Of a stretch of DNA of 64,000 nucleotides, positions 29,920-59,716 are shown piece by piece. The position numbers and the translations under genes were made by a program. This stretch comes from Anaeromyxobacteraceae bacterium (GTDB lineage Bacteria > Myxococcota > Myxococcia > Myxococcales > Anaeromyxobacteraceae). The notes beneath the pieces are model-generated. The model saw nothing but the letters and a program-made list of their open reading frames with translations, had not been told where the DNA came from and did no database searches. Location of the stretch: the NCBI GenBank assembly GCA_047602405.1, contig JASGHJ010000002.1, positions 2,848,001 to 2,912,000 on the forward strand. Reading direction: 5' to 3'. Every line of letters starts with the position of its first letter. The stretch's first letter is position 1.

Positions 29920-30588
29920 CCGTGGGAGCCAAACGGGCCTCCGCGACAGCGCTTGCTCGGACGGGTTTGAGACGGAACAGATCGCCGGAACCGTTGCTGT
30001 TCCATGGCGGTGACCGCCGCAGCAGGCCTGCGCGCGAGTTGCGCGTGTCGACGCCGTGCGCTGCGCGCACGTCGCCGACACACGCCCTCGTCACTTGGCC
30101 TGCATTGCTAGGATCCTGGTGGCCGTACCTCGCCCGTCGCTCGCTGCGCGCTGCTGCGGAGGCCCGTTTGGCTCTCGGGCGTGGTGGACTGACGTCGGCC
30201 GTAGATGCCGGGTGCCGATGAACGACTAACGATGGGCGATGGCCATTTGGCAGTTTGCCCGCCGCATCTTCTTCACCATCAGTTCCGCACTTGCACCCCA
30301 GCACCATCGGCCGACCTCAGTCCGCTCGTTCCGAGGGCGAAACGCGCCTCCGCAGCGGCGCGCAGCGAGCGACGGGCGAGGTTCCGTCCCCACATCTGGG
30401 CATTGCAGGCCAAGCGACGAGGGCGTGTGACGGCGCCTTGCGCGCAGCGCAAGGCGTCGTCACGCGCAACTCGCGTGCAGGCCTGCTGCCACGATCACCG
30501 CACTGCAACAGCAACGGTTCCGGCGATCGACACCGTCTCATACCCGTCCGAGCAAGCGCCGTCGCGGAGGCGCGTTTCGCCCCCACGG
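29920..30588. repeat. Long fold-back intergenic element, copy 1 (unit A forward, spacer, unit B reverse)
   Basis: 29920-30178 is an imperfect reverse complement of 30331-30588; a second copy lies at 41779-42437. Confidence 0.9.
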
Positions 30589-36418: not shown

Positions 36419-41737
<5,319 letters not shown>

Positions 41738-41778: not shown

Positions 41779-42437
41779 CCGTGGGAGCCAAACGGGCCTC
41801 CGCGACAGCGCTTGCTCGGACGGGTTTGAGACGGAAGAGATTGCCGGAACCGTTGCCGTTCCACGGCGGTGATCGCGCAGCAGGCCTGCGGACCATGTGC
41901 GCGTGACGGCGTCGTGCGCTGCGCGCACGGCGCCGTCCTCGCGCGATGGTTCCTTGGCCTGCAATGCGAGATGTGGTGACGGTACCTCGCCCGTCGCTCG
42001 CTGCGCGCTGCTGCGGAGGCCCGTTTGGCTCTCGGGCGTCGTGGACGGCGGTGCGGCCGATACTGCTGGGGTGCTGGTGAACGACTAACGGTAGGTCACC
42101 CGCCGTCCGTCACCTCATCGGAACCATCAGTTCATCACTCGCCGCCCAGCAGTATCGGCCGACCTCAGTCCGCTACCTCCGAGGGCGAAACGCGTCTCCG
42201 CAGCGGCGCGCAGCGAGCGACGGGCGAGGTTCCGTCTCCACATCGCAGCATTGCAGGCCTAGAGATGTGGGCGGGTGACGGCATGGCGCGCGCAGCGCGC
42301 TGTGCCGTCACCCGCATCTCAATCGACGGCCTGCTGCCGCCGATCACCGCCGTGGAACAGCAACGGTTCCGGTGATCGGTCCCGTCTCAAACCCGTCCGA
42401 GCAAGCGCCGTCGCGGAGGCGCGTTTCGCCCCCACGG
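41779..42437. repeat. Long fold-back intergenic element, copy 2
   Basis: 41779-42035 is an imperfect reverse complement of 42179-42437; first 56 bp identical to copy 1. Confidence 0.9.
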
Positions 42438-42540
42438 CAACGCACCGTCGACGACAAGGGGGGAACGAACGGCCAAGCGTGGGACGAACGGTTGGCCCCC
42501 ACGGCAGCGCACCGTCGACGACAGGGGAAACGAGCGGTTC

Positions 42541-43113
42541 TTACTCGACCACCCAGATCATCTCCCACCTGCGGCCCTCGCGGGCCGCAGGCACGGAGAG
42601 GATCACGTCCTGGAGCTGGCGGCGGGCGCAGTCGACCGCGCCGGGGTCCTCGGGGGGCGGCACGGGGACGCCCGCCGGGAACTCCTTCGGATCGTGCGCC
42701 GTGCCCTTCACCTCGACGACGCGCACCCGGCGGTCGAGCGACTCGAAGCCCAGGAGCAGCTCGGCGTGGAGGAGCCGGCACGGGCGCACGCGGTCGGCGT
42801 AGGCGTGGAGCGCCTCCTGGATCTGCGCCGTCCAGGCCTGGAGCGCGGCGGCGCGCTCGCCGAGGTCGGCGGGCAGCGTCTCCTTCGCGGTGCCCTCCCC
42901 GGGCTCCCTCGGCTTCGGGGGCGCCTCCCGCGGCGGCGGCGGGGGGCTGGCGTTCGGCAGCACGATTTGCGGCAGCGGCGCGGGTGCCGCGGCCTCGGGC
43001 GCCGGCGCGGCGCCGGGTCCCTTCACCGGCCCCTCGAGCGACAGCACGAGCCACACTCCGCCCGCGGCGAGGAGCACGATCCCTGCGAGGCCGGCGAGGA
43101 GCCCCTTCCTCAC
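42541..43113 (-). CDS. Hypothetical membrane-anchored protein with Pro-rich linker (TonB-C/AgmX-like architecture)
   Basis: N-terminal [14 protein letters not shown] linker, C-terminal domain with two Cys; GTGA overlap with the ptsG stop. Confidence 0.65.
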
Positions 43114-51139: not shown

Positions 51140-53743
51140 CTAGAAGCTGTTGGTCTGGATGCCGAAGCCGCGGACGAGGGTCGCGTCCTGGCCGTCACCC
51201 GCGACGTCCGGGAGCTGCGAGCCAGCGGTCGCGTCGGAGGCCGGGAGGCCCACCGGCAGCTTGCCGCGGCCGTTCACGATGCCGAACGCGACGTCCATGG
51301 CGACCTTGTCGGAGTGCTGGTTGGCCGGGAGGATCCCCATCCAGTCGATGTAGAGGCCGCTGATCCCGAGGGCCGCGGCCTGGAGCTCGCTCACGACGAG
51401 CGGCCGGCCCGCGTCGACGAACACGACGATCTGTGCCTGCGAGGCGGGGCCGCCGCCGGAGTTCGTCGCCCACCAGGTGATGGCGTCGCGCGCCTCCTGG
51501 ACCGGCGCCAGGACGGTCGCGTCCGTGGCGCCGTAGGTGAGCGCCGGCGTCGGGAGGCTGAGCGCGCCCGCGTCGGAGTCCGCCGCGAAAGGCGCCGCGA
51601 TGCGGACGAGGACGTAGTCGGAGAGCGCGAGCCGCTGCTTGCGGGCGACCACCGGGTCCGAGGAGATGGTGAATTCCTTCACCTTCGGGGCGTCGTTGTT
51701 CATCGTCCCGTAGCCGGCGGACACCGAGCGCACGTAGTCGAGGTCGAAGTCGCCGGAGATGAAGTAGTCGCAGCCCGCAGCGACGTACGGCTCGCCCGGA
51801 GGCGCCGGGAGCACCTTCATCGTCCCGTTGCCCGCGTTGCCCTTGTCGCCCGTCTGGTGCCCGTCGCCCTTCAGCGGATCGCCGTTCAGCCAGCCCGCAG
51901 GCTTGTCCTTGTTGACGAGCAGCACCATGCCGCGGTTCATCGCGTCGAGGCCGGCCTGGAAGGCCGTGTCGGCGCCGACGAGCGTGGGCGCCAGCGCGGC
52001 GTCGACGTACGGGTTCTCGAACAGGCCGAGCTGGAACGTCACGGCGAGCACGTGGGTGGCCGCCGCCGTCACCTGGGCGTCGGACAGCCCGGCCGCGGCG
52101 AGGTCGGTGGTCGCGTTGACGCCGAGGAACTGGTCGACCCCCGCGCCCACCGCCTTCGCGATGCGCTGGGCCTTCGTCGAGCCCTCCATGCCCCAGGGCG
52201 CGCCGAGCGGGGCGACGCCGGCGTCGTTGAGGATGCCCGCCGGCGCGAGCACGAGGCCGCCGAAGGAGAAGTGGTTGCGGAGGACCGAGGTGACGATCGT
52301 CGAGTTGTAGGACGAGGCGACCTGCTCGATCGTCGAGCCGTTGACCGCGCCGGAGAGCCCGGTCCACGCGCCCTGCTTCGGCACGCCGTAGCCGGTCATG
52401 ACGCCGGCCACGCCCGCGCCGAAGGCGCCCTGGAACGCGTTCACGTGGTCGTCGAACTTGGTCGAGTAGCCGTAGTACTTGCCCTTCGAGAGGCGGGCGT
52501 CGAAGCCGTCCGCGGCCGGACCCGCGCCGGGGAAGTGGCCGACGACCGCGGCGACGCCGGTCGAGGAGAGCGCGGTGCCCTGCAGGCCCTTGACCAGGGC
52601 CGCCGCCATCGCCGACACCGAGGCGGAGTCCTCGCCGAAGGTGAACTGCGAGCTCTGGAGCCGCGGGTCGGTGGCGAGATCGGCGGGGACCGAGAGCGCC
52701 ATGGTGATGCCGATGGCGCGGTACTCCTTCGCGACGATCTTGCCGTAGTTCTCGACGAGGGCGAGGTCGCCCGTGGCGCCCAGCGCGAGCTCGTTCGGCC
52801 ACTGCGTGAAGCGATTCGCCTTCACCCGGCCGTTGCCGGTCTGGTGCGCGGCCTCGCTCGAGAGGACGAACGGCACGCCCCAGGTCGCGGCCTCGGCGCG
52901 CTCCTGGATCGCGTTGGCCCAGGTCGCGCGGTTACCCACGCCGGCCGTGTTCGCGGTGGTCTGGCCGAAGCGGATGCCGGCGTCGACGATGGCGAGCGTG
53001 CCGGCGGACGGCGTGGCGCTCGAGATGGTGTCGGAGAGGGAGGCGTGGGCGAGGAGCGCGAGCTTCTGCGCGGTGGTCATGCGGGAGGCGAGGTCGGCGG
53101 CGCGAACCGCGGCGCCCTTCGTCCAGTCCTCGTAGGGCTGCAGGGCGGCGTCACCGGACGCGTCCTTGAAGTCGAGGGAGACCGAGCACTGCACGCTCGG
53201 GTCGCCCGCGACGCTCGCGAAGGTGGTGCTGGTGGTGAGCTTCGCCTTGTGGCCGGTGCCCGTGCCGACCTTGATGACCGGCTGGGCGGCGATGAGCGCG
53301 TTCTTCTTCGCGACGTTGGCGGCCTTGTCGCACTCCGCCGTCCCCGTGCCGACGCAGAGGTTGTTCGTGCAGGCCTGGCTGGCGCCGCAGTCGGCGACCT
53401 TGTGGCAGGTCGTGCCGGGGGTCGTCTCGGGGACGCAGGTGCTCGCGCTGCCGCAGTACTGCTGCGCGGGGCAGTCGGTGTGCAGCGTGCAGGTCGGAGC
53501 CGGCGCGGTGCAGACGTGGCTCTGGCAGGTCTTCGGCGAGGCGCAGTCGACCGCGCGGTTGCAGTCGACGCCCGGGTTCGGGAACGCGGTGCAGGTCCCG
53601 CTCGCCGAGCAGAACTTCTGCGCGGCGCAGTTGTCGTCCGAGGTGCACTCCGGCCCGACGGGGTCGGGGCCGCCACCACCGCCGCAGGCCGCGAGGCCCG
53701 AGAGTGCCGCCACCGCGATGAGCCAACCGAGTCTCTTCGTCAT
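51140..53743 (-). CDS. GH3-fold lipoprotein with Cys-rich stalk and degenerate catalytic motifs
   Basis: LAAC lipobox; YEDW, ADLATDPR, HFPG, LGLFENPYVD; LAPAG replaces the xDW motif. Confidence 0.85.
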   Translation of the reverse strand: MTKRLGWLIAVAALSGLAACGGGGGPDPVGPECTSDDNCAAQKFCSASGTCTAFPNPGVDCNRAVDCASPKTCQSHVCTAPAPTCTLHTDCPAQQYCGSASTCVPETTPGTTCHKVADCGASQACTNNLCVGTGTAECDKAANVAKKNALIAAQPVIKVGTGTGHKAKLTTSTTFASVAGDPSVQCSVSLDFKDASGDAALQPYEDWTKGAAVRAADLASRMTTAQKLALLAHASLSDTISSATPSAGTLAIVDAGIRFGQTTANTAGVGNRATWANAIQERAEAATWGVPFVLSSEAAHQTGNGRVKANRFTQWPNELALGATGDLALVENYGKIVAKEYRAIGITMALSVPADLATDPRLQSSQFTFGEDSASVSAMAAALVKGLQGTALSSTGVAAVVGHFPGAGPAADGFDARLSKGKYYGYSTKFDDHVNAFQGAFGAGVAGVMTGYGVPKQGAWTGLSGAVNGSTIEQVASSYNSTIVTSVLRNHFSFGGLVLAPAGILNDAGVAPLGAPWGMEGSTKAQRIAKAVGAGVDQFLGVNATTDLAAAGLSDAQVTAAATHVLAVTFQLGLFENPYVDAALAPTLVGADTAFQAGLDAMNRGMVLLVNKDKPAGWLNGDPLKGDGHQTGDKGNAGNGTMKVLPAPPGEPYVAAGCDYFISGDFDLDYVRSVSAGYGTMNNDAPKVKEFTISSDPVVARKQRLALSDYVLVRIAAPFAADSDAGALSLPTPALTYGATDATVLAPVQEARDAITWWATNSGGGPASQAQIVVFVDAGRPLVVSELQAAALGISGLYIDWMGILPANQHSDKVAMDVAFGIVNGRGKLPVGLPASDATAGSQLPDVAGDGQDATLVRGFGIQTNSF

Positions 53744-53822
53744 GTCCTCGTCTCCTCGCTGCTGCTTCGGTGTCGGCGCGGGGGGCGCCGAGCGTCGGGT
53801 TCTTCCGCCTTCCCGGCTCCGC

Positions 53823-53859
53823 GGCCCCCCTCCCCCGCGTTGGCGGGTGGAGGGGGGCC
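53823..53859. other. GC-rich intergenic hairpin between GH3 genes
   Basis: GGCCCCCCTCC-CCCGC-GTTG-GCGGG-T-GGAGGGGGGCC. Confidence 0.55.
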
Positions 53860-53958
53860 CCGGGGCCGCGGAGAGGGCGCCCACGTCAGGAGTCCGGGCT
53901 CCCCGGCGTGGCGCGCCTTCTCCGGCGGCTTTGCTGCTACTGCACCTTCACGTGCGGG

Positions 53959-56616
53959 CTAGTTGCTCGGGAGCGCCGAGCCGGTGCCCGTGACGAAGAG
54001 CGGGAAGTACGAGTCGTTCGGCAGGTCCTCGTACTGCTCGTTCACGGCCTTCTCGTCCCGCGGGAACTCGACCGGGAGCCGGGCCGCGCCGTAGGCGTAG
54101 CCGGCCGGGGTCGTCGGCACGTTCTTGTTGAAGAGGAAGTCGAGGACCGCGCGGTCGTACGCGCCGAACTCGACGAGGAACGTGTCCACGCCGGCGTGGG
54201 CCGTGGCGGTGGTCGTGGTGACCTGGCTCGGGTTGACGTTCGTGCCGTCCCAGAGGACGGGGTAGCAGAGCTCCTTCGCGGCGTCGCTGCCCGCGGCGTC
54301 GCAGCCCACGCGCTCGTCGAGCGTCTTGAGCCCGTTGATGAAGGGCGTCACCGGGCTCGGGCGGTCCATGTGCATCACGAGGACGATGCGGAGCGTGGAC
54401 TTCGCGGCCGGGACGACCGTGCCGTCCGCCTTCTTGTAGCCGTCGCGGATGCGGAAGAGGTCGATGACCTTCTGCGCGTCCTTGACGGCCGGGGCGCGGC
54501 CGGAGTCGTTGTTGAGGCCGGGGTACGGCGCGTCGAACGAGAGCGGAACGCCCGCGTCGAGGCCGGAGTAGGTGCCCTTGCGCGCCGTGATGCGAAGGAC
54601 GGCGATGTCGGCGTCCGCAGCGGTCGCGGCGGCGACGATCGGGAGCTTGAAGCCGGCGGTGCCGGCCGTGCCAGCGCCCGCGGCGCGGTAGTCGTAGTCG
54701 GCCGCGAGGACCGGCGAGAGCCCCGCGAGGGCGTTGATGGGCGCCGTGCTGTAGCGGTCGGGGCCGTTGAGCGCGTCGGCGACGCCGTCGAAGAACACCT
54801 CGACGCTGCCGTCCTTGTCGGCGTCGGAGGCGAACTCACCCACGTCGGGCGCGCCGGCCGTGCCGCCGGCCACGTCGGTGTAGCGGCTCTGCGAGATCGG
54901 GAGCCGACCCGGGTTCGTGGTGCCCGCGTTCTGGACGAGGACGATCGCCTTCTTCTGCGCGTCGAAGCCGTTCTGCATGGCCTCGGCGTTGCGGGCGAGG
55001 GCGGTGGTGGCGTCGCTCGTGTACGGGTTCTCGAAGAGGCCGAGCTTGAACGTCATCTCGAGGATCTTCGTCGCCGCGCCGTTGATCTCGGCCTCGGTGA
55101 GGAAGCCCTGGTCGTAGGCGGCCTGGACGATCGTGACGGAGTCGGAGCCGAGCTGGTGCGAGCCGGCCTTCACGAAGATCGCCGCGCGCTCGGGCTGGCT
55201 GAGCGCCTCGACGCCGAAGGCGGCGCCGGACATCGTGCCCCAGTCGGAGGTGACCATGCCGTCGAAGCCGAGCTCGTTCTTCAGGAGCCGGGTGATCATG
55301 CCGTAGGAGAACGCCGTGCCGTACTGCTCCGGGTTCCACTCGTAGATGCCCTTCTCGATCGAGTAGCAGGGCATGACGGCGGCGGCGCCGGCGTCGATGG
55401 CGTACGTGAAGGGCTTCACGTGGTTGTCGAAGTTGCCGCCCGGGTAGACGTTGTACTTGCCGCGGTAGCCGTGGGAGTCACGGCCGTCCTCGTCGGGGCC
55501 GGCGCCGGGGAAGTGCTTCATGGTCGCCGCGATGCCGCCGCGGAGGCCGCCCGCCTTGCCGGCCTGGAAGCCGAGGATGACCTCCTTGCCGATCTTGCCG
55601 ACGTGGTCGGGCTGCTCGCCGAACATCGTGATGAAGCGCGCCCAGCGGGGCTCGGTCGCGGAGTCCATCATCGGGCCGAGCTGCCAGCGGAAGCCGATGC
55701 CCATGAAGTCCTTGCGGACCGTGTCACCGTACTGGAACGCGACGTCCGCGCTGTTGATCGCGCCGAGGCCCATCGGGTTCGGCCACTGCGAGACGGCCGG
55801 GGTGATCGAGAGCGTCTGGACGCCGGCGGTCGAGGTGGACTGGGTCACGAAGTGGACCGGGTCCGCGGTGATGGCGAACGGGATGCCCCACTTCGAGCCC
55901 TCGACGATCGCCTGGAGGTTGTTGACGTAGGTCTGGTACTGCGTCGGGGTGATGTCCGCGAGGCGGATGAGCGCCTGGCGGCGGTTCTCGACGAAGAGCG
56001 CGTTGATCGTCGACTGGACGAAGATGCCGTCGGTCGTGCCGGAGCCGATGGAGCCCGCCTCGCCCATCAGGCCGGTCTTCTCCTTCACGGCCATGCGGGC
56101 GACGAGGTCCTTCGCGCGGCAGACGTCGGAGTAGCGCCAGTCCTCGTACTTCTCGAGGGTGCCGTTCGCGTTCAGGTCGCGGAACTGGAGCCCGTCCACG
56201 GTGATGGCGCTCTTCTTCGTGAAGGGCACCTCGACCGCGGCGGTCGCCGTGTTGGCGTCGTCGTCGTAGGTGTAGGCGGCCGCGTTGGCGCCGAGCACCT
56301 TGCCGCTCGGCGCGATGCGGCCCGCCGTGGCGGTCGCCGCGGCGAAGTCGACCGCGAACTTGAGGGTGGGCTGGACGGTGTTGACCTTCACCGTGCAGGG
56401 ATCGACCGGCTCGGGCGTGACCGAGGCGACGCAGACGCCCGCCTTGCAGGTCTGGCCCGTCGGGCAGAGGCCGATCGGGTAGTCCAGGCTGCACGCCGGG
56501 ATCTCACCGGGGACGGGGACGGGCACTTCGACGGTCTTGACCTCGGTCTCGGTACAGGCGGCGAGGCCGAGCGCGAGCAGCGCGGCCATGCCGATCCTCT
56601 GAATCGTGACTCGCAT
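53959..56616 (-). CDS. GH3 beta-glucosidase-like lipoprotein
   Basis: LAAC lipobox; FRDLN.NG.LEKYEDWR, TEPRWAR, MKHFPG, MPCY, VTSDW. Confidence 0.92.
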   Translation of the reverse strand: MRVTIQRIGMAALLALGLAACTETEVKTVEVPVPVPGEIPACSLDYPIGLCPTGQTCKAGVCVASVTPEPVDPCTVKVNTVQPTLKFAVDFAAATATAGRIAPSGKVLGANAAAYTYDDDANTATAAVEVPFTKKSAITVDGLQFRDLNANGTLEKYEDWRYSDVCRAKDLVARMAVKEKTGLMGEAGSIGSGTTDGIFVQSTINALFVENRRQALIRLADITPTQYQTYVNNLQAIVEGSKWGIPFAITADPVHFVTQSTSTAGVQTLSITPAVSQWPNPMGLGAINSADVAFQYGDTVRKDFMGIGFRWQLGPMMDSATEPRWARFITMFGEQPDHVGKIGKEVILGFQAGKAGGLRGGIAATMKHFPGAGPDEDGRDSHGYRGKYNVYPGGNFDNHVKPFTYAIDAGAAAVMPCYSIEKGIYEWNPEQYGTAFSYGMITRLLKNELGFDGMVTSDWGTMSGAAFGVEALSQPERAAIFVKAGSHQLGSDSVTIVQAAYDQGFLTEAEINGAATKILEMTFKLGLFENPYTSDATTALARNAEAMQNGFDAQKKAIVLVQNAGTTNPGRLPISQSRYTDVAGGTAGAPDVGEFASDADKDGSVEVFFDGVADALNGPDRYSTAPINALAGLSPVLAADYDYRAAGAGTAGTAGFKLPIVAAATAADADIAVLRITARKGTYSGLDAGVPLSFDAPYPGLNNDSGRAPAVKDAQKVIDLFRIRDGYKKADGTVVPAAKSTLRIVLVMHMDRPSPVTPFINGLKTLDERVGCDAAGSDAAKELCYPVLWDGTNVNPSQVTTTTATAHAGVDTFLVEFGAYDRAVLDFLFNKNVPTTPAGYAYGAARLPVEFPRDEKAVNEQYEDLPNDSYFPLFVTGTGSALPSN

Positions 56617-56699
56617 CTAGGAGCTCCTTCGGTGAGAAGCGGTTGCGCTGCGGGACGCCCGGAATTGTGGCGCAGCGTGCCCGGTGTGCGTGCAGCGGG

Positions 56700-56736
56700 C
56701 TTCCCGGTTCTTGATCTTTCGTTTTCGGTTTCTTGC
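56700..56736 (-). promoter_or_regulatory. Conserved upstream motif, copy 1 (candidate AraC-type operator)
   Basis: Minus strand GCAAGAAACC-N5-CGAAAGATCAAGA; shared with 59717-59762. Confidence 0.6.
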
Positions 56737-56851
56737 AGCTGGGGCCCGAACCCGGAGCCGCGTGGCTGCGCTGCGTCACCACACCGAAAAGAACGAGGGC
56801 CGGCGCGGCGCAGGACTTGCGCCGGCCGGCCCCGTTCAACCCACCGTCAGG

Positions 56852-59647
56852 TCAGTTCGCCGGCAGGGCGATCCCGGCGCCGTTGATGTACGACGGCTGC
56901 CAGGAGTCGTTCGCCACGTCCTCGAGCTGCCCACGGACGGCCGCATCCGAGGAGGGGAGCTCCATCGGCAGGCGGGCCGAGCCGTAGGTGAAGCCGGTCG
57001 GGACGTTCTTGTTGAAGACGAAGTCCAGCACCGCGCGGTCGTAGGCGCCGAAGTCGGCGAGGAAGGCGTCCACGCCGGTGAAGGTCGCCAGCTGGTTGAT
57101 GTTCGCCTCGTCGGAGACGCTCGGGTAGGAGCCGGCCTGGCCGGCGAGCTCGTCGAGGCTCACGAGGCCGACGATGAACGGCCGGACGATGCCGGGCCGC
57201 GTCGTCTGCTGCACGAGGATGATCTTCAGGGTGGCGTTCGTCGGCAGGACCTGGGTCCCATCCGACTTCTTGTAGCCGTCGCGGGCGCGGAACGCGTCGA
57301 GCACCTTCTTCTTCGAGGCCGCCGCGGCCGCGAGGCTCCCGTCGACCTGGTTCACGAGCTGGTCGGGCGTGAGGACGCCGTCGTAGGAGAGCAGGCCCTC
57401 GAAGGTGCGGGCGGACGCGCGCGGGACGATGCGGATGATGGCGATGTCGGCCTTCGTGATGTCGGCGGTCGCCTCGACGGGCAGCGTGTAGCCCGCGACG
57501 CCGGCGGTGCCGCTGCCGGCGGCGGTGTAGTTGTAGTCGCCGAAGAGGTCGTTCACGTCGTCCTGCTTCGCCGCCTCTGCCGCCGTCGGGCCGACGATGC
57601 TGTCGAAGACGCCGTCGTAGTAGACGGTGACCTTCGCGTCGCCGTTCGTGTCGCAGTGGAACTCGCCGACGTCCGGCGCGCTCGCGGTGCCGCCCGCCTT
57701 GTCGGTGTAGCGGGTCCCGTTGATGGGCAGGTAGCGGATCGAGGACGTCGCGTGGTCCTGGTTGCGGAGCAGCACGATCGCCTTCTTCATCGTCTCGAAG
57801 CCGTCACGCCGGTCGGCCTGCGTCCGCATCGAGGTCGCGGCGTTCGCCGCCACCACGTACGGGTTCTCGAAGGCGCCCGTCTTGAACGTCATCTCGAGGA
57901 TCTTCTCGGCCGCCGCGTCGATCTCGGCCTCGCTCACGAGGCCCTGGTCGAAGGCCTGCTGGAAGGCGGTGTTCGAGTCGATGCCGAACTGGTGCGAGCC
58001 GGCGTGCAGCCACTGCGCGCCGCGCTCCGCGTAGGTCCAGTTCTCCATGTTGAAGGCCTGGCCGTTGGCCGTGTTCCAGTCGCCGGTCACCATCCCGGTG
58101 AAGCCCATGCGCTTCTTCGCGAGGCCGGTGATGAACTCGTAGGAGAAGCCCGACGGGATCTGGAGCGGGTCGTACTGGTACTGATCCTTGTAGATCGCGT
58201 AGCACGGCATGATCGCCGCCGCGCCCACGTCGAAGGCCGCCTGGAACGGGATGAAGTGCGCCTCGAGGTTGTTGCCCGGGTAGACGTTGAAGCGGCCCGG
58301 GTAGGTGTGGGCGTCCATGCCGTCGTCCTCGGCGCCGTGGCCGGGGAAGTGCTTCATGGTGGCCGCGATGCCGTTGCGGAGGTCGCCGGTCGCGCTGCCC
58401 TGGAAGCCGATCACCATCGCCTCGACGTGCTTCGAGACCGCCACCGGGTCGGAGCCGAGGACGCCGGCGATGCGGCCCCAGCGGGGCTCGGTCGCGGAGT
58501 CGGCCATGGGCCCGAGCTGCCAGCGGAGGCCGGCGGCCATGAACTCGCGGCGGACGCAGTCACCGTGACGGCGGGTGAGGTCGCGGTCGTTGATCGCGCC
58601 GAACGCGAGCGTGCTCGGCCAGTTCGTCATCAGCGTGGACTTCGAGATCGACATCGTGCCGTCGGCCGCCATGGAGGCGCTGATGGAGTGCGCCGGGTCG
58701 GCGGAGACGATCGCCGGGATGCCCAGCGGGAGCCCCTCGGCCATCGCCTGCACGTTGTTGAAGTAGGTGGCGAGCTGGGTGCCGGTGAAGCCAAAGCGCG
58801 TGAGGCCCTGCCGGTAGTTCCAGTACGCGATGTTCTGCACCGTCGAGTCGGCGAGCACGCCGTCGTTGGAGCCGTTGCCGAGCGAGCCGCCCGAGTTCAT
58901 GAGGCCGACCTTCTGCGGGACGGTCATGCGCTTCACGAGGTCGCGCGCGCGGCAGAGCGGCGAGTAGCGCCAGTCCTCGTAGCGCTCGAGGGTGGTGTTG
59001 TGGTTGAGGTCGCGGAAGTCCTTCCCGTCCACCGTGATCTTGGCCTTCTGCGTGTAGGGCACCTCGACGGCGGCGGTGGCGGTGTTGTTGTCGGCGTCGT
59101 ACGTGTACGCGACGCCGCCGGCCTTCGTGGGCTTCGCCGCGGCGAAGCCGAGCGTCGGCTGGGTGGTGGTCACCTGCGCGGCGCAGGGGTCGACCTCGGC
59201 CGGGGTGACCGGCGGGACCGCGGAGGCGATGATGCAGCCGCCGCCGTAGCACGCCCACCCGGTCGGGCAGGTGCCGGCCTGGTTCGCGGCGGAGCAGATG
59301 CTCGCGGTCGTCGCGCAGGCGCCCATGAAGCAGGTCTGGCCAGCGTCACACGTGCCGTTCGGCACGGTCGGGCTGCACGCGGCCGGGACCGAGGCCGCGA
59401 CGATGCAGCCGCCGCCGTAGCACTGGAAGCCGTTCGGGCAGCTGCCGGTCGCGTTGGTCGCGCTGCAGAGCGAGGCGGTCGCGACGCACGCGCCCTGCGA
59501 GCAGGACTGGCCGGAGGCGCACTGGCCGGTCGGGTAGGTGGGACTGCAGTCCGGGATCCGATCCACGTACTTCGTCTCGGTGTCCGTGCACGCGGCGAGG
59601 CCGGCGAGCACGAGCGAGGCGAAGAGGAGGTTCTTCGGTACGCGCAT
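56852..59647 (-). CDS. GH3 beta-glucosidase-like lipoprotein with four Cys repeats
   Basis: LAAC lipobox; FRDLN...YEDWR, TEPRWGR, MKHFPG, VTGDW. Confidence 0.92.
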   Translation of the reverse strand: MRVPKNLLFASLVLAGLAACTDTETKYVDRIPDCSPTYPTGQCASGQSCSQGACVATASLCSATNATGSCPNGFQCYGGGCIVAASVPAACSPTVPNGTCDAGQTCFMGACATTASICSAANQAGTCPTGWACYGGGCIIASAVPPVTPAEVDPCAAQVTTTQPTLGFAAAKPTKAGGVAYTYDADNNTATAAVEVPYTQKAKITVDGKDFRDLNHNTTLERYEDWRYSPLCRARDLVKRMTVPQKVGLMNSGGSLGNGSNDGVLADSTVQNIAYWNYRQGLTRFGFTGTQLATYFNNVQAMAEGLPLGIPAIVSADPAHSISASMAADGTMSISKSTLMTNWPSTLAFGAINDRDLTRRHGDCVRREFMAAGLRWQLGPMADSATEPRWGRIAGVLGSDPVAVSKHVEAMVIGFQGSATGDLRNGIAATMKHFPGHGAEDDGMDAHTYPGRFNVYPGNNLEAHFIPFQAAFDVGAAAIMPCYAIYKDQYQYDPLQIPSGFSYEFITGLAKKRMGFTGMVTGDWNTANGQAFNMENWTYAERGAQWLHAGSHQFGIDSNTAFQQAFDQGLVSEAEIDAAAEKILEMTFKTGAFENPYVVAANAATSMRTQADRRDGFETMKKAIVLLRNQDHATSSIRYLPINGTRYTDKAGGTASAPDVGEFHCDTNGDAKVTVYYDGVFDSIVGPTAAEAAKQDDVNDLFGDYNYTAAGSGTAGVAGYTLPVEATADITKADIAIIRIVPRASARTFEGLLSYDGVLTPDQLVNQVDGSLAAAAASKKKVLDAFRARDGYKKSDGTQVLPTNATLKIILVQQTTRPGIVRPFIVGLVSLDELAGQAGSYPSVSDEANINQLATFTGVDAFLADFGAYDRAVLDFVFNKNVPTGFTYGSARLPMELPSSDAAVRGQLEDVANDSWQPSYINGAGIALPAN

Positions 59648-59716
59648 GGCTGCTCCTGGAGTTGCGAGTGTGGGTGCCCGGAGGACACGCACCATGCGCG
59701 CTCGACCCCGAGTTCA

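Follow-up and report, generated by a model that had tools for sequence, protein, structure and literature searches.

A multi-copy, non-coding repeat made of two facing 260-nt hairpins was identified in the window, by which we mean the whole 64,000-nt stretch of DNA analyzed here (C2:2848001-2912000 of the 6.16-Mb genome G000, 74% G+C). With a probability of roughly 0.65, we take it to be likely non-autonomous selfish DNA that is copied and reshuffled as one composite by way of folded single strands, with an inner arm that holds a predicted, guide-matched target of an IS1111-type insertion sequence (IS). The repeat is present in multiple copies of one layout between convergent genes, with unlike ends on its two units, central loops common to several copies, block-wise exchange of its end, arm and core layers, and an IS at a single position.

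The element in the window

The left unit (41779..42037, plus strand; type A end, arm a, core alpha) is a 259-nt self-complementary hairpin. Its outer A end (41781..41803, plus strand), a GTGG followed by a short bulged, REP-like hairpin, also forms the 5' strand of the terminal stem. The left core hairpin (41880..41963, plus strand), a layer that is swapped as a block among copies, is flanked by near-invariant GCAGGCC and GGCCTGCA boxes, and its tip (41916..41926, minus strand) is GCGCAGC on the minus strand, a GCGNAGC mini-hairpin. The right unit (42177..42437, minus strand; type B end, arm a, core gamma) is 261 nt long and inverted with respect to the left unit, with its GCGCAGC tip at 42290-42296 on the plus strand. 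Between the two, the left inner arm (42038..42092, plus strand), which includes TGAACGACTAACG at 42078-42090, pairs with the right inner arm (42123..42176, plus strand), which includes ACCATCAGTTC and ATCGGCCGACCTCAGTCCGCT, and the true central loop (42093..42122) is about 30 nt in this copy, its length and sequence varying between copies. At the start of the right arm stands ACCATC|AGTTCA (42123..42134, plus strand), an empty two-mismatch version of the predicted IS1111 target ACCGTT|AGTTCA. The minus strand of the left arm contains ACCGTT|AG (42092-42085), the left half of the IS target, and CGTTCAC (42083-42077), a tag common to this genome's small palindromic repeat. The right outer foot (42438..42472, plus strand), loosely conserved across the family, begins with CAACG, and a partial direct repeat of the right end, CCCCACGGCA...GTCGACGAC (42497..42538, plus strand), resembles the tandem end repeats of other copies.

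Upstream, a gene for 1772 aa (36419..41737, plus strand) with MopE-type metal-binding repeats and a TIG domain stops 41 nt before the element, and downstream a gene for 190 aa without Pfam match (42541..43113, minus strand) converges on it. The MopE-type repeats of the 1772-aa protein, of which there are several, are cysteine- and aspartate-rich.

A sister copy (29920..30588, plus strand; A-a-beta / B-a-beta) lies 11.86 kb from the window element, so the layout is repeated nearby, as an earlier note on this DNA had described. That note was also accurate in placing both copies between convergent genes, in assigning GGAGCCAAACGG-type sequence to the A ends and GGGCGAAACGC-type sequence to the B ends, and in naming three spacer motifs, which begin at 42078, 42123 and 42154 in the window copy and at 30219, 30275 and 30306 in the sister copy. 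The CAACG that it reported after both copies is present (42438 and 30589) but is not a family trait, standing directly after the B end in 2 of the 15 two-ended loci described below.

Copies of the composite in the genome

BLAST, motif and profile searches located 16 loci in the genome, of which 14 are full composites, one is collapsed and one is a half copy. All 15 two-ended loci lie between convergent genes, compared to 837 of 5083 gaps (16.5%) in the background, as judged with a simple, crude custom gene caller that called 5085 genes; the half copy lies in a co-oriented gap. None of the 16 loci overlaps a called gene, and the distance from an element to a stop codon is usually no more than about 130 nt. 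In 5 loci an end belongs to a third type, C (GGGCTCGACGCG), and the ends of the two-ended loci are paired as A-B (8), A-C (5), A with an A/B hybrid (1) and B-B (1), with no A-A pair. An A end is thus joined to a non-A end in 14 of 15 loci (P = 0.0017 for random end pairing), a statistic which, since the copies are related, says that the pairs were copied together. Loop sequence is common to copies e06, e10 and e11, and also to e13 and e16, at unlinked sites. The pairing of A with non-A ends and the central loops common to unlinked copies indicate that the A-spacer-B composite is the copied unit, as had been proposed from the window copies.

These results also bear on the explanation that only two copies exist, produced by local duplication or misassembly. 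Two copies 12 kb apart would suit it, and long palindromes do break short-read assemblies (short contigs were seen), yet there are 16 loci on two contigs with differing sequences, parts of the element are held in contigs of independent sequencing runs (e.g., 238 nt with 5 differences in X4), and the element is present at the orthologous site of genome G010 with a different core and loop. Both an artefact and a local duplication are excluded.

Several element ends carry tandem 41-46-nt repeats of the outer foot plus the terminal hairpin. An autonomous copy was sought among the four long copies and rejected, as these hold an IS1111 and not a gene of the element; among the 16 loci, no copy has any gene besides the IS. 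Beyond this genome, the family was found in 2 of the 37 genus genomes searched, a third match being a lone motif. Plasmids and phages gave no match and viral contigs none, and lone motif matches made up 14 of 16 loci in a wider scan of genome collections and 20 of 20 in a metagenome scan. The orientation of the 16 loci follows no pattern with respect to replication direction. As a separate, post hoc observation, the 38% of the genome surrounding the GC-skew minimum (C1:1-1950000 and C2:3370000-end) is free of all 16 copies (P ~ 5e-4), whereas the small palindromic repeat is common in that region.

Orthologous sites and homogenization

The history of the copies was followed at the orthologous sites of G010, which has an element at the site of the window copy with a different right core and loop. 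Of the 16 loci, 12 could be read there: one is full, two are collapsed (one in the opposite orientation), two are end remnants and seven, including the site of the sister copy, are without trace. The intergenic DNA at the seven empty sites does not align, and neither clean ends nor a target-site duplication could be read from them. All five G010 sites with a trace are also occupied in G000, so that the data fit loss in G010 no less well than gain in G000, and the seven empty sites may be losses.

The window left unit is 97-98% identical to four unlinked paralogs and 91% identical to its G010 ortholog; four-fold sites of the gene beside the element are 83% identical between the two genomes (229/276). 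Being closer to unlinked paralogs than to its ortholog, the left unit has been homogenized within the genome, and common loops together with near-identical units at unlinked sites require copying or conversion.

Folding of the units

Folded as DNA, the whole window element forms a four-way structure of -334.5 kcal/mol compared to -177 +/- 6 for 20 shuffles, and the left unit alone, folded as RNA, gives z = -9.6. Each unit is a hairpin of 258-261 nt in which a terminal stem, about 28 pairs long, is followed by two asymmetric arms and by a core hairpin that the near-invariant GCAGGCC/GGCCTGC boxes enclose. Across 26 aligned units, 97.9% of pairing cells are paired compared to 90.5% in shuffles, none of 500 of which reaches this value, and changes on both sides of the pair occur in 19 of 71 predicted pairs, counts which are inflated by relatedness, since only 3 end, 2 arm and 3 core types exist and the events are few. 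The terminal hairpins of the A and B types differ by a compensatory pair. The layers are nested and combine as A-a-alpha, A-a-beta, B-a-beta, B-a-gamma, B-c-beta, B-c-gamma, C-c-beta and C-c-gamma, and the two halves of a layer agree in type in 28/28 units for the arms and in 27/27 typed units for the cores. Of 28 units, 24 have a core tip that reads GCGNAGC (with GAA, GCA or GTA) along the inner-to-outer strand; one further unit has it on the other strand and three have a four-base loop. GCGNAGC is a DNA mini-hairpin motif (PMC13037366).

In the terminal stem, the strand that is transcribed from the adjacent gene has 117 G-T against 42 A-C, while folding energies as RNA prefer neither strand (13/28); taken together, these leave folding as RNA fitting as well. 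We therefore weighed a reading in which the element acts as RNA, forming a two-way 3'-end structure between convergent genes that would stabilize, process or insulate transcripts and would be maintained by host selection and homogenized by gene conversion. Consistent with it are the G-T excess, the convergent placement of all 15 two-ended loci, usually about 130 nt or less from a stop codon, the higher identity of the left unit to G010 than of four-fold sites (91% versus 83%), and an argument in PMC3733652 that REPs act at the RNA level. Against it, the element is absent or broken at 11 of the 12 orthologous G010 sites, four copies tolerate IS insertions of 1.47 kb, and the tip motif is of DNA type and lies on the strand opposite the adjacent transcript. 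Moreover, Rfam returned no family at gathering score (below it only hairpin-type chance hits), and no terminator-like or sigma-70-like site was found in the element. An RNA function as the main explanation is accordingly unlikely, although it could exist as a side effect.

Under the preferred reading, selfish DNA moving through folded single strands, each strand of the extruded or unwound element would fold, and a hairpin-reading single-strand nuclease supplied in trans would nick the folded strand. Such a nick would start copying into new 3'-3' gaps and would also set off conversion among the copies, the formation of tandem repeats at the ends and the replacement of central loops.

Related families in the genus

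Three other sequence families of like layout, F2, F3 and F4, are present in the genus. They have in common the unit size, the plan of two unlike units and a GCCGTGGG foot, the sole motif seen in all four families, while sequence links between them are weak. F2 occupies about 14 loci in G000, and 12 of the 13 checked are convergent. Its copies include C2:3323061-3323727 and C2:278075-279630; inside the latter lies an ORF of lower GC content, some 270 codons long. By eye, F2 units and the F4 right unit are without the GCGNAGC tip, which is present in 15 of 15 parsed F3 units.

F3 matches were found in 7 of 91 family genomes, and in G006 and G011 it fills the gap behind the deoxyhypusine synthase gene where G000 has the 29920 copy. 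In 11 copies, its loops are 54 to 1028 nt long, and lower-GC gene pieces, including DUF7832 and AAA-ATPase (AAA_15) fragments, occur in some of them; unlike lower-GC loops were recorded at F3 loci L168, L197, L198, L187, L210 and L216 (G006, G011, G016, G019). F4, in which an F3-like left unit is joined to a right unit weakly like the C type of the element described here, is multi-copy in three genomes (G007, G015, G003; loci L228 and L288-L307). Internal deletions account for most of the differences between orthologous F4 sites, as if an old burst had been followed by decay.

Inner arms and the IS1111-type passenger

The earlier note had treated the spacer between the units as DNA holding three conserved motifs that are protein recognition or cleavage sites. 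The 5' and 3' spacer motifs proved to be the two strands of one inverted, paired arm and not separate boxes in an unpaired spacer. All three motifs are kept in both window copies, but they are less fixed across the 16 loci of the family: TGAACGACTAACG with up to one mismatch was found in 9, ATCGGCCGACCTCAGTCCGCT with up to two mismatches in 6, and exact ACCATCAGTTC in 5 (6 occurrences). Arm ends plus loop span 73 to 279 nt across the family, and conservation of the motifs is explained at least partly by base pairing of the inner arms. The proposal of protein sites was borne out in one respect, ACCATCAGTTC being a variant form of the sequence that an RNA-guided IS1111 recombinase is predicted to target; that the motifs are conserved because machinery of the element itself reads them was not supported, as no enzyme of the element was found and the IS arrived recently as a passenger.

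An additional 1.47 kb is present at four loci, each of which contains an IS110-type transposase gene of the DEDD class (364 aa; PF01548, PF02371; NF033542, E 1.7e-75). The IS is 1470 bp long, with 13-bp subterminal inverted repeats, extensions of 7 nt on the left and 3 nt on the right, and a 277-nt non-coding region after the gene. The genome has four copies, all at one arm position, and removing the IS in silico restores ACCGTT|AGTTCA in 4/4. The predicted target is ACCGTTAGTTCA, and its empty counterpart in the window is ACCATCAGTTCA. No empty ACCGTTAGTTC site is left in the genome; before AG, free arms read ACCATC, ACCGTC, ACCTTT, ACCGGT, ACCATG or AACGTT. Within the non-coding region, ATGAACTA complements the top strand of the target, a run reached in 16 of 1000 shuffles, and CGCTGTTAG, downstream of it, pairs with the bottom strand. 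In a predicted internal loop the two lie opposite one another, and their order is that of IS1111, for which PMC11187229 describes the layout and a top-strand guide followed by a bottom-strand guide.

Among 200 other genomes of the order, 14 contain related IS1111 elements, and of 16 related loci examined, 10 could be parsed, giving nine elements after one duplicate was dropped. Across these nine, the top-strand guide matches its target at 39 of 45 positions, which none of 100000 permutations reached, and in the five elements with a left end the bottom-strand guide matches at 19 of 25 positions (p = 0.016). Judged from these alignments, guides and targets co-vary across the nine related elements, and the ACCATCAGTTC of the window is predicted to be a two-mismatch variant of a programmed recombination site. 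The passenger agrees with the IS1111 family, as set out in PMC11187229, in its DEDD transposase, in its 13-bp subterminal repeats, which are extended by 7 + 3 nt, in the non-coding region that follows the gene and in the guide order. It also resembles ISPa11, an IS that inserts into REPs, in having all copies within one repeat family (PMC1525189), with the difference that its target is the inner arm of a giant composite and not a short REP. Relatives of the passenger carry other guides, matching another family of like layout.

The IS copies are 1-3 nt apart, against a divergence of 6-17% between the arms that host them, and therefore the IS came late; G010, though it has the element, has no match to it. 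The passenger is probably a recent parasite that uses a conserved, non-essential site. In another reading, the IS1111 recombinase itself builds or moves the composite, with the two arm sites as partners. Both inner arms do have target-like sequence facing the variable loop, and a related IS is found in F3 too; but the late arrival of the IS and its absence from G010 oppose this, the related IS in F3 lies at a different position, the base of the core hairpin, and the outer ends are without IS donor sequence, which together make such a role very unlikely. Related IS1111 elements with different guides were observed inside F3 units at L140 (G006) and L225 (G009), and another inside an array of GTAG-type REPs at L134 (G204).

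Two further readings of the arms and loops were rejected. In an integron attC, the boxes do not stand as they do here, where GTT/AAC boxes directly border the loop. Nor do the loops look like pre-existing intergenic DNA, the G010 gap at the 29920 site being unlike the loop of that copy. Element loops have no match elsewhere in the genome, and this includes a stretch with repeated CTGACCCC in the loop of e02 (C1:2051475-2051712), which we take to resemble an IS21-type end.

Search for a mobilizing enzyme

Given the REP-like ends, we considered whether a REP-associated tyrosine transposase (RAYT) that recognizes the GTGG foot and bulged terminal hairpin moves the element, which would then be an ordinary REPIN/BIME. 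Of 30 outer ends, 18 have GTGG in front of the terminal hairpin, the GCCGTGGG foot is in all four families, a compensatory pair distinguishes the A and B hairpins, and the tandem 41-46-nt end repeats resemble the BIME amplification modeled in PMC3333891. On the other hand, the remaining 12 of 30 outer ends have variants in place of GTGG, GTGG is absent at inner ends, and in length the units exceed the REPINs of PMC3116915 several-fold. The genome has 11 Y1 (HUH) genes by our own count, none of them flanked by element ends, nor is any of the 30 Y1 loci of eight relatives. The W-Q motif, which PMC6006769 links to enzymes that read GT[AG]G, is in none of the 11 and in 1 of the 30, the flanks of which are unmatched. 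With flanks unmatched and the W-Q motif absent in G000, a Y1 transposase was rejected as the partner, and movement by a RAYT is quite unlikely.

The likeness to REPINs and BIMEs is nonetheless extensive. According to PMC3116915, PMC3333891 and PMC3733652, these are likewise extragenic and non-coding, with inverted short hairpin ends around a pairing spacer and compensatory changes, and they share with the element dimers of unlike partners, tandem repeats at some loci, presence that varies between relatives and a preference for gene 3' ends. The differences are of size (a unit of about 260 nt and a composite of 650-850 nt, against about 70-110 nt), of architecture (nested end, arm and core layers swapped as blocks), of placement (strictly convergent) and of number (16 copies, not hundreds). 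In addition, no RAYT is flanked by the element and none of W-Q type is in the genome. The element thus works like an oversized REPIN/BIME, and we do not count it as a member because no cognate RAYT was found.

A reverse transcriptase route was also rejected, as the eight RT hits belong to one multi-copy element with group II intron features and none is flanked by the repeat. This RT element (L230-L237), 1.9 kb long, was observed in seven near-identical copies plus one internally deleted copy, mostly at gene boundaries. Among the Y1 genes, four 98%-identical transposase gene copies with their own conserved ends (L003-L005 and C2:581808-582693) are apparently a recently active element.

A different kind of candidate is a short GIY-YIG nuclease of 102 aa (C1:1892791-1893096), which has a Pfam GIY-YIG match and no NCBIfam match, and whose gene is adjoined by arrays of the small tagged palindromic repeat. 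Such a repeat is on at least one side of the gene in 9/9 close homologs (both sides in 5/9) and, by inspection, in 0/9 distant homologs. About 180 intergenic copies of the repeat were found with a relaxed pattern; it begins CG[CT][CT]C[AG][CT] and has a GCGNAGC-type tip on the tag strand in 116 of 150 copies, reversed in 3. In the giant element, a CG[CT][CT]CA[CT] tag is at one position, at the loop edge, in 11 of 14 left arms, a match noticed post hoc and with a chance of 1-22% in 55 nt depending on stringency. This tag, the reverse of TGAACG, shares its strand with the GCGNAGC tip, like that of the small repeat, and is followed by a 50-nt arm, not by a short hairpin. A variant of the small repeat replaces part of a unit in e03 and e05. 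By eye, no tag was found in F3, and the small repeat was rejected as a constant neighbor of the element, being beside it at 3 of 16 loci and in 60 of 308 convergent gaps, with no enrichment.

This arrangement, a short single-domain GIY-YIG gene beside small tagged hairpin repeats, resembles the Ssn system (PMC11893778); the left arm of the giant element has the tag and tip polarity of the small repeat. It departs from Ssn in that the published SRM pattern is unmatched in 15 of 15 elements and at the GIY-YIG locus. Ssn has been shown to cut, and its role in spreading repeats is put forward as a hypothesis (Chenal et al. 2025, PMC11893778). As SsnA cuts just upstream of its tag, a similar cut in the giant element would hit the variable loop. 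The 102-aa nuclease is the best candidate for the enzyme spreading the element, albeit a weak one with the odds well against it; most of the remaining probability goes to a GTGG-reading Y1 transposase now lost from the genome or to host recombination alone. A broader and improbable extension would make the giant hairpin heterodimers a genus-wide DNA-capture platform, in which the GIY-YIG nuclease would nick 5' of the arm tag at the loop edge, causing spread, swapping of layers and entry of foreign gene pieces into the loop, while one IS1111 clade would have been repeatedly re-guided to follow the families.

Relation to other repeats

Bacterial MITEs are non-autonomous, non-coding, intergenic sequences with terminal inverted repeats that occur in many copies. 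The giant element is likewise non-coding, multi-copy and intergenic with inverted repeats, but it is almost wholly inverted repeat and has ragged ends with tandem end repeats, and no parent IS with its ends was found in a profile search of the genome or in the collection scans. No description of repeats of such size and nested layout in the genus was found in openly accessible literature. The selfish repeats of REP/REPIN type are extended by the element to a size and nested layout not found described, in a genome without a recognizable RAYT, and this raises the question of what spreads such repeats where there is no RAYT.

For the passenger, the nine elements form a natural collection of IS1111 recombinases that have been re-guided, with predicted pairs of guide and target. 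The passenger in G000 also shows that an IS1111-type element can have a non-coding repeat as its only landing site within a genome. The predicted IS1111 target is a firm new result, its surprise limited by IS elements that target repeats being already known, ISPa11 in REPs among them (PMC1525189).

Elsewhere in the window, at 52000-59700, three tandem paralogous genes are spaced by about 2.85 kb.
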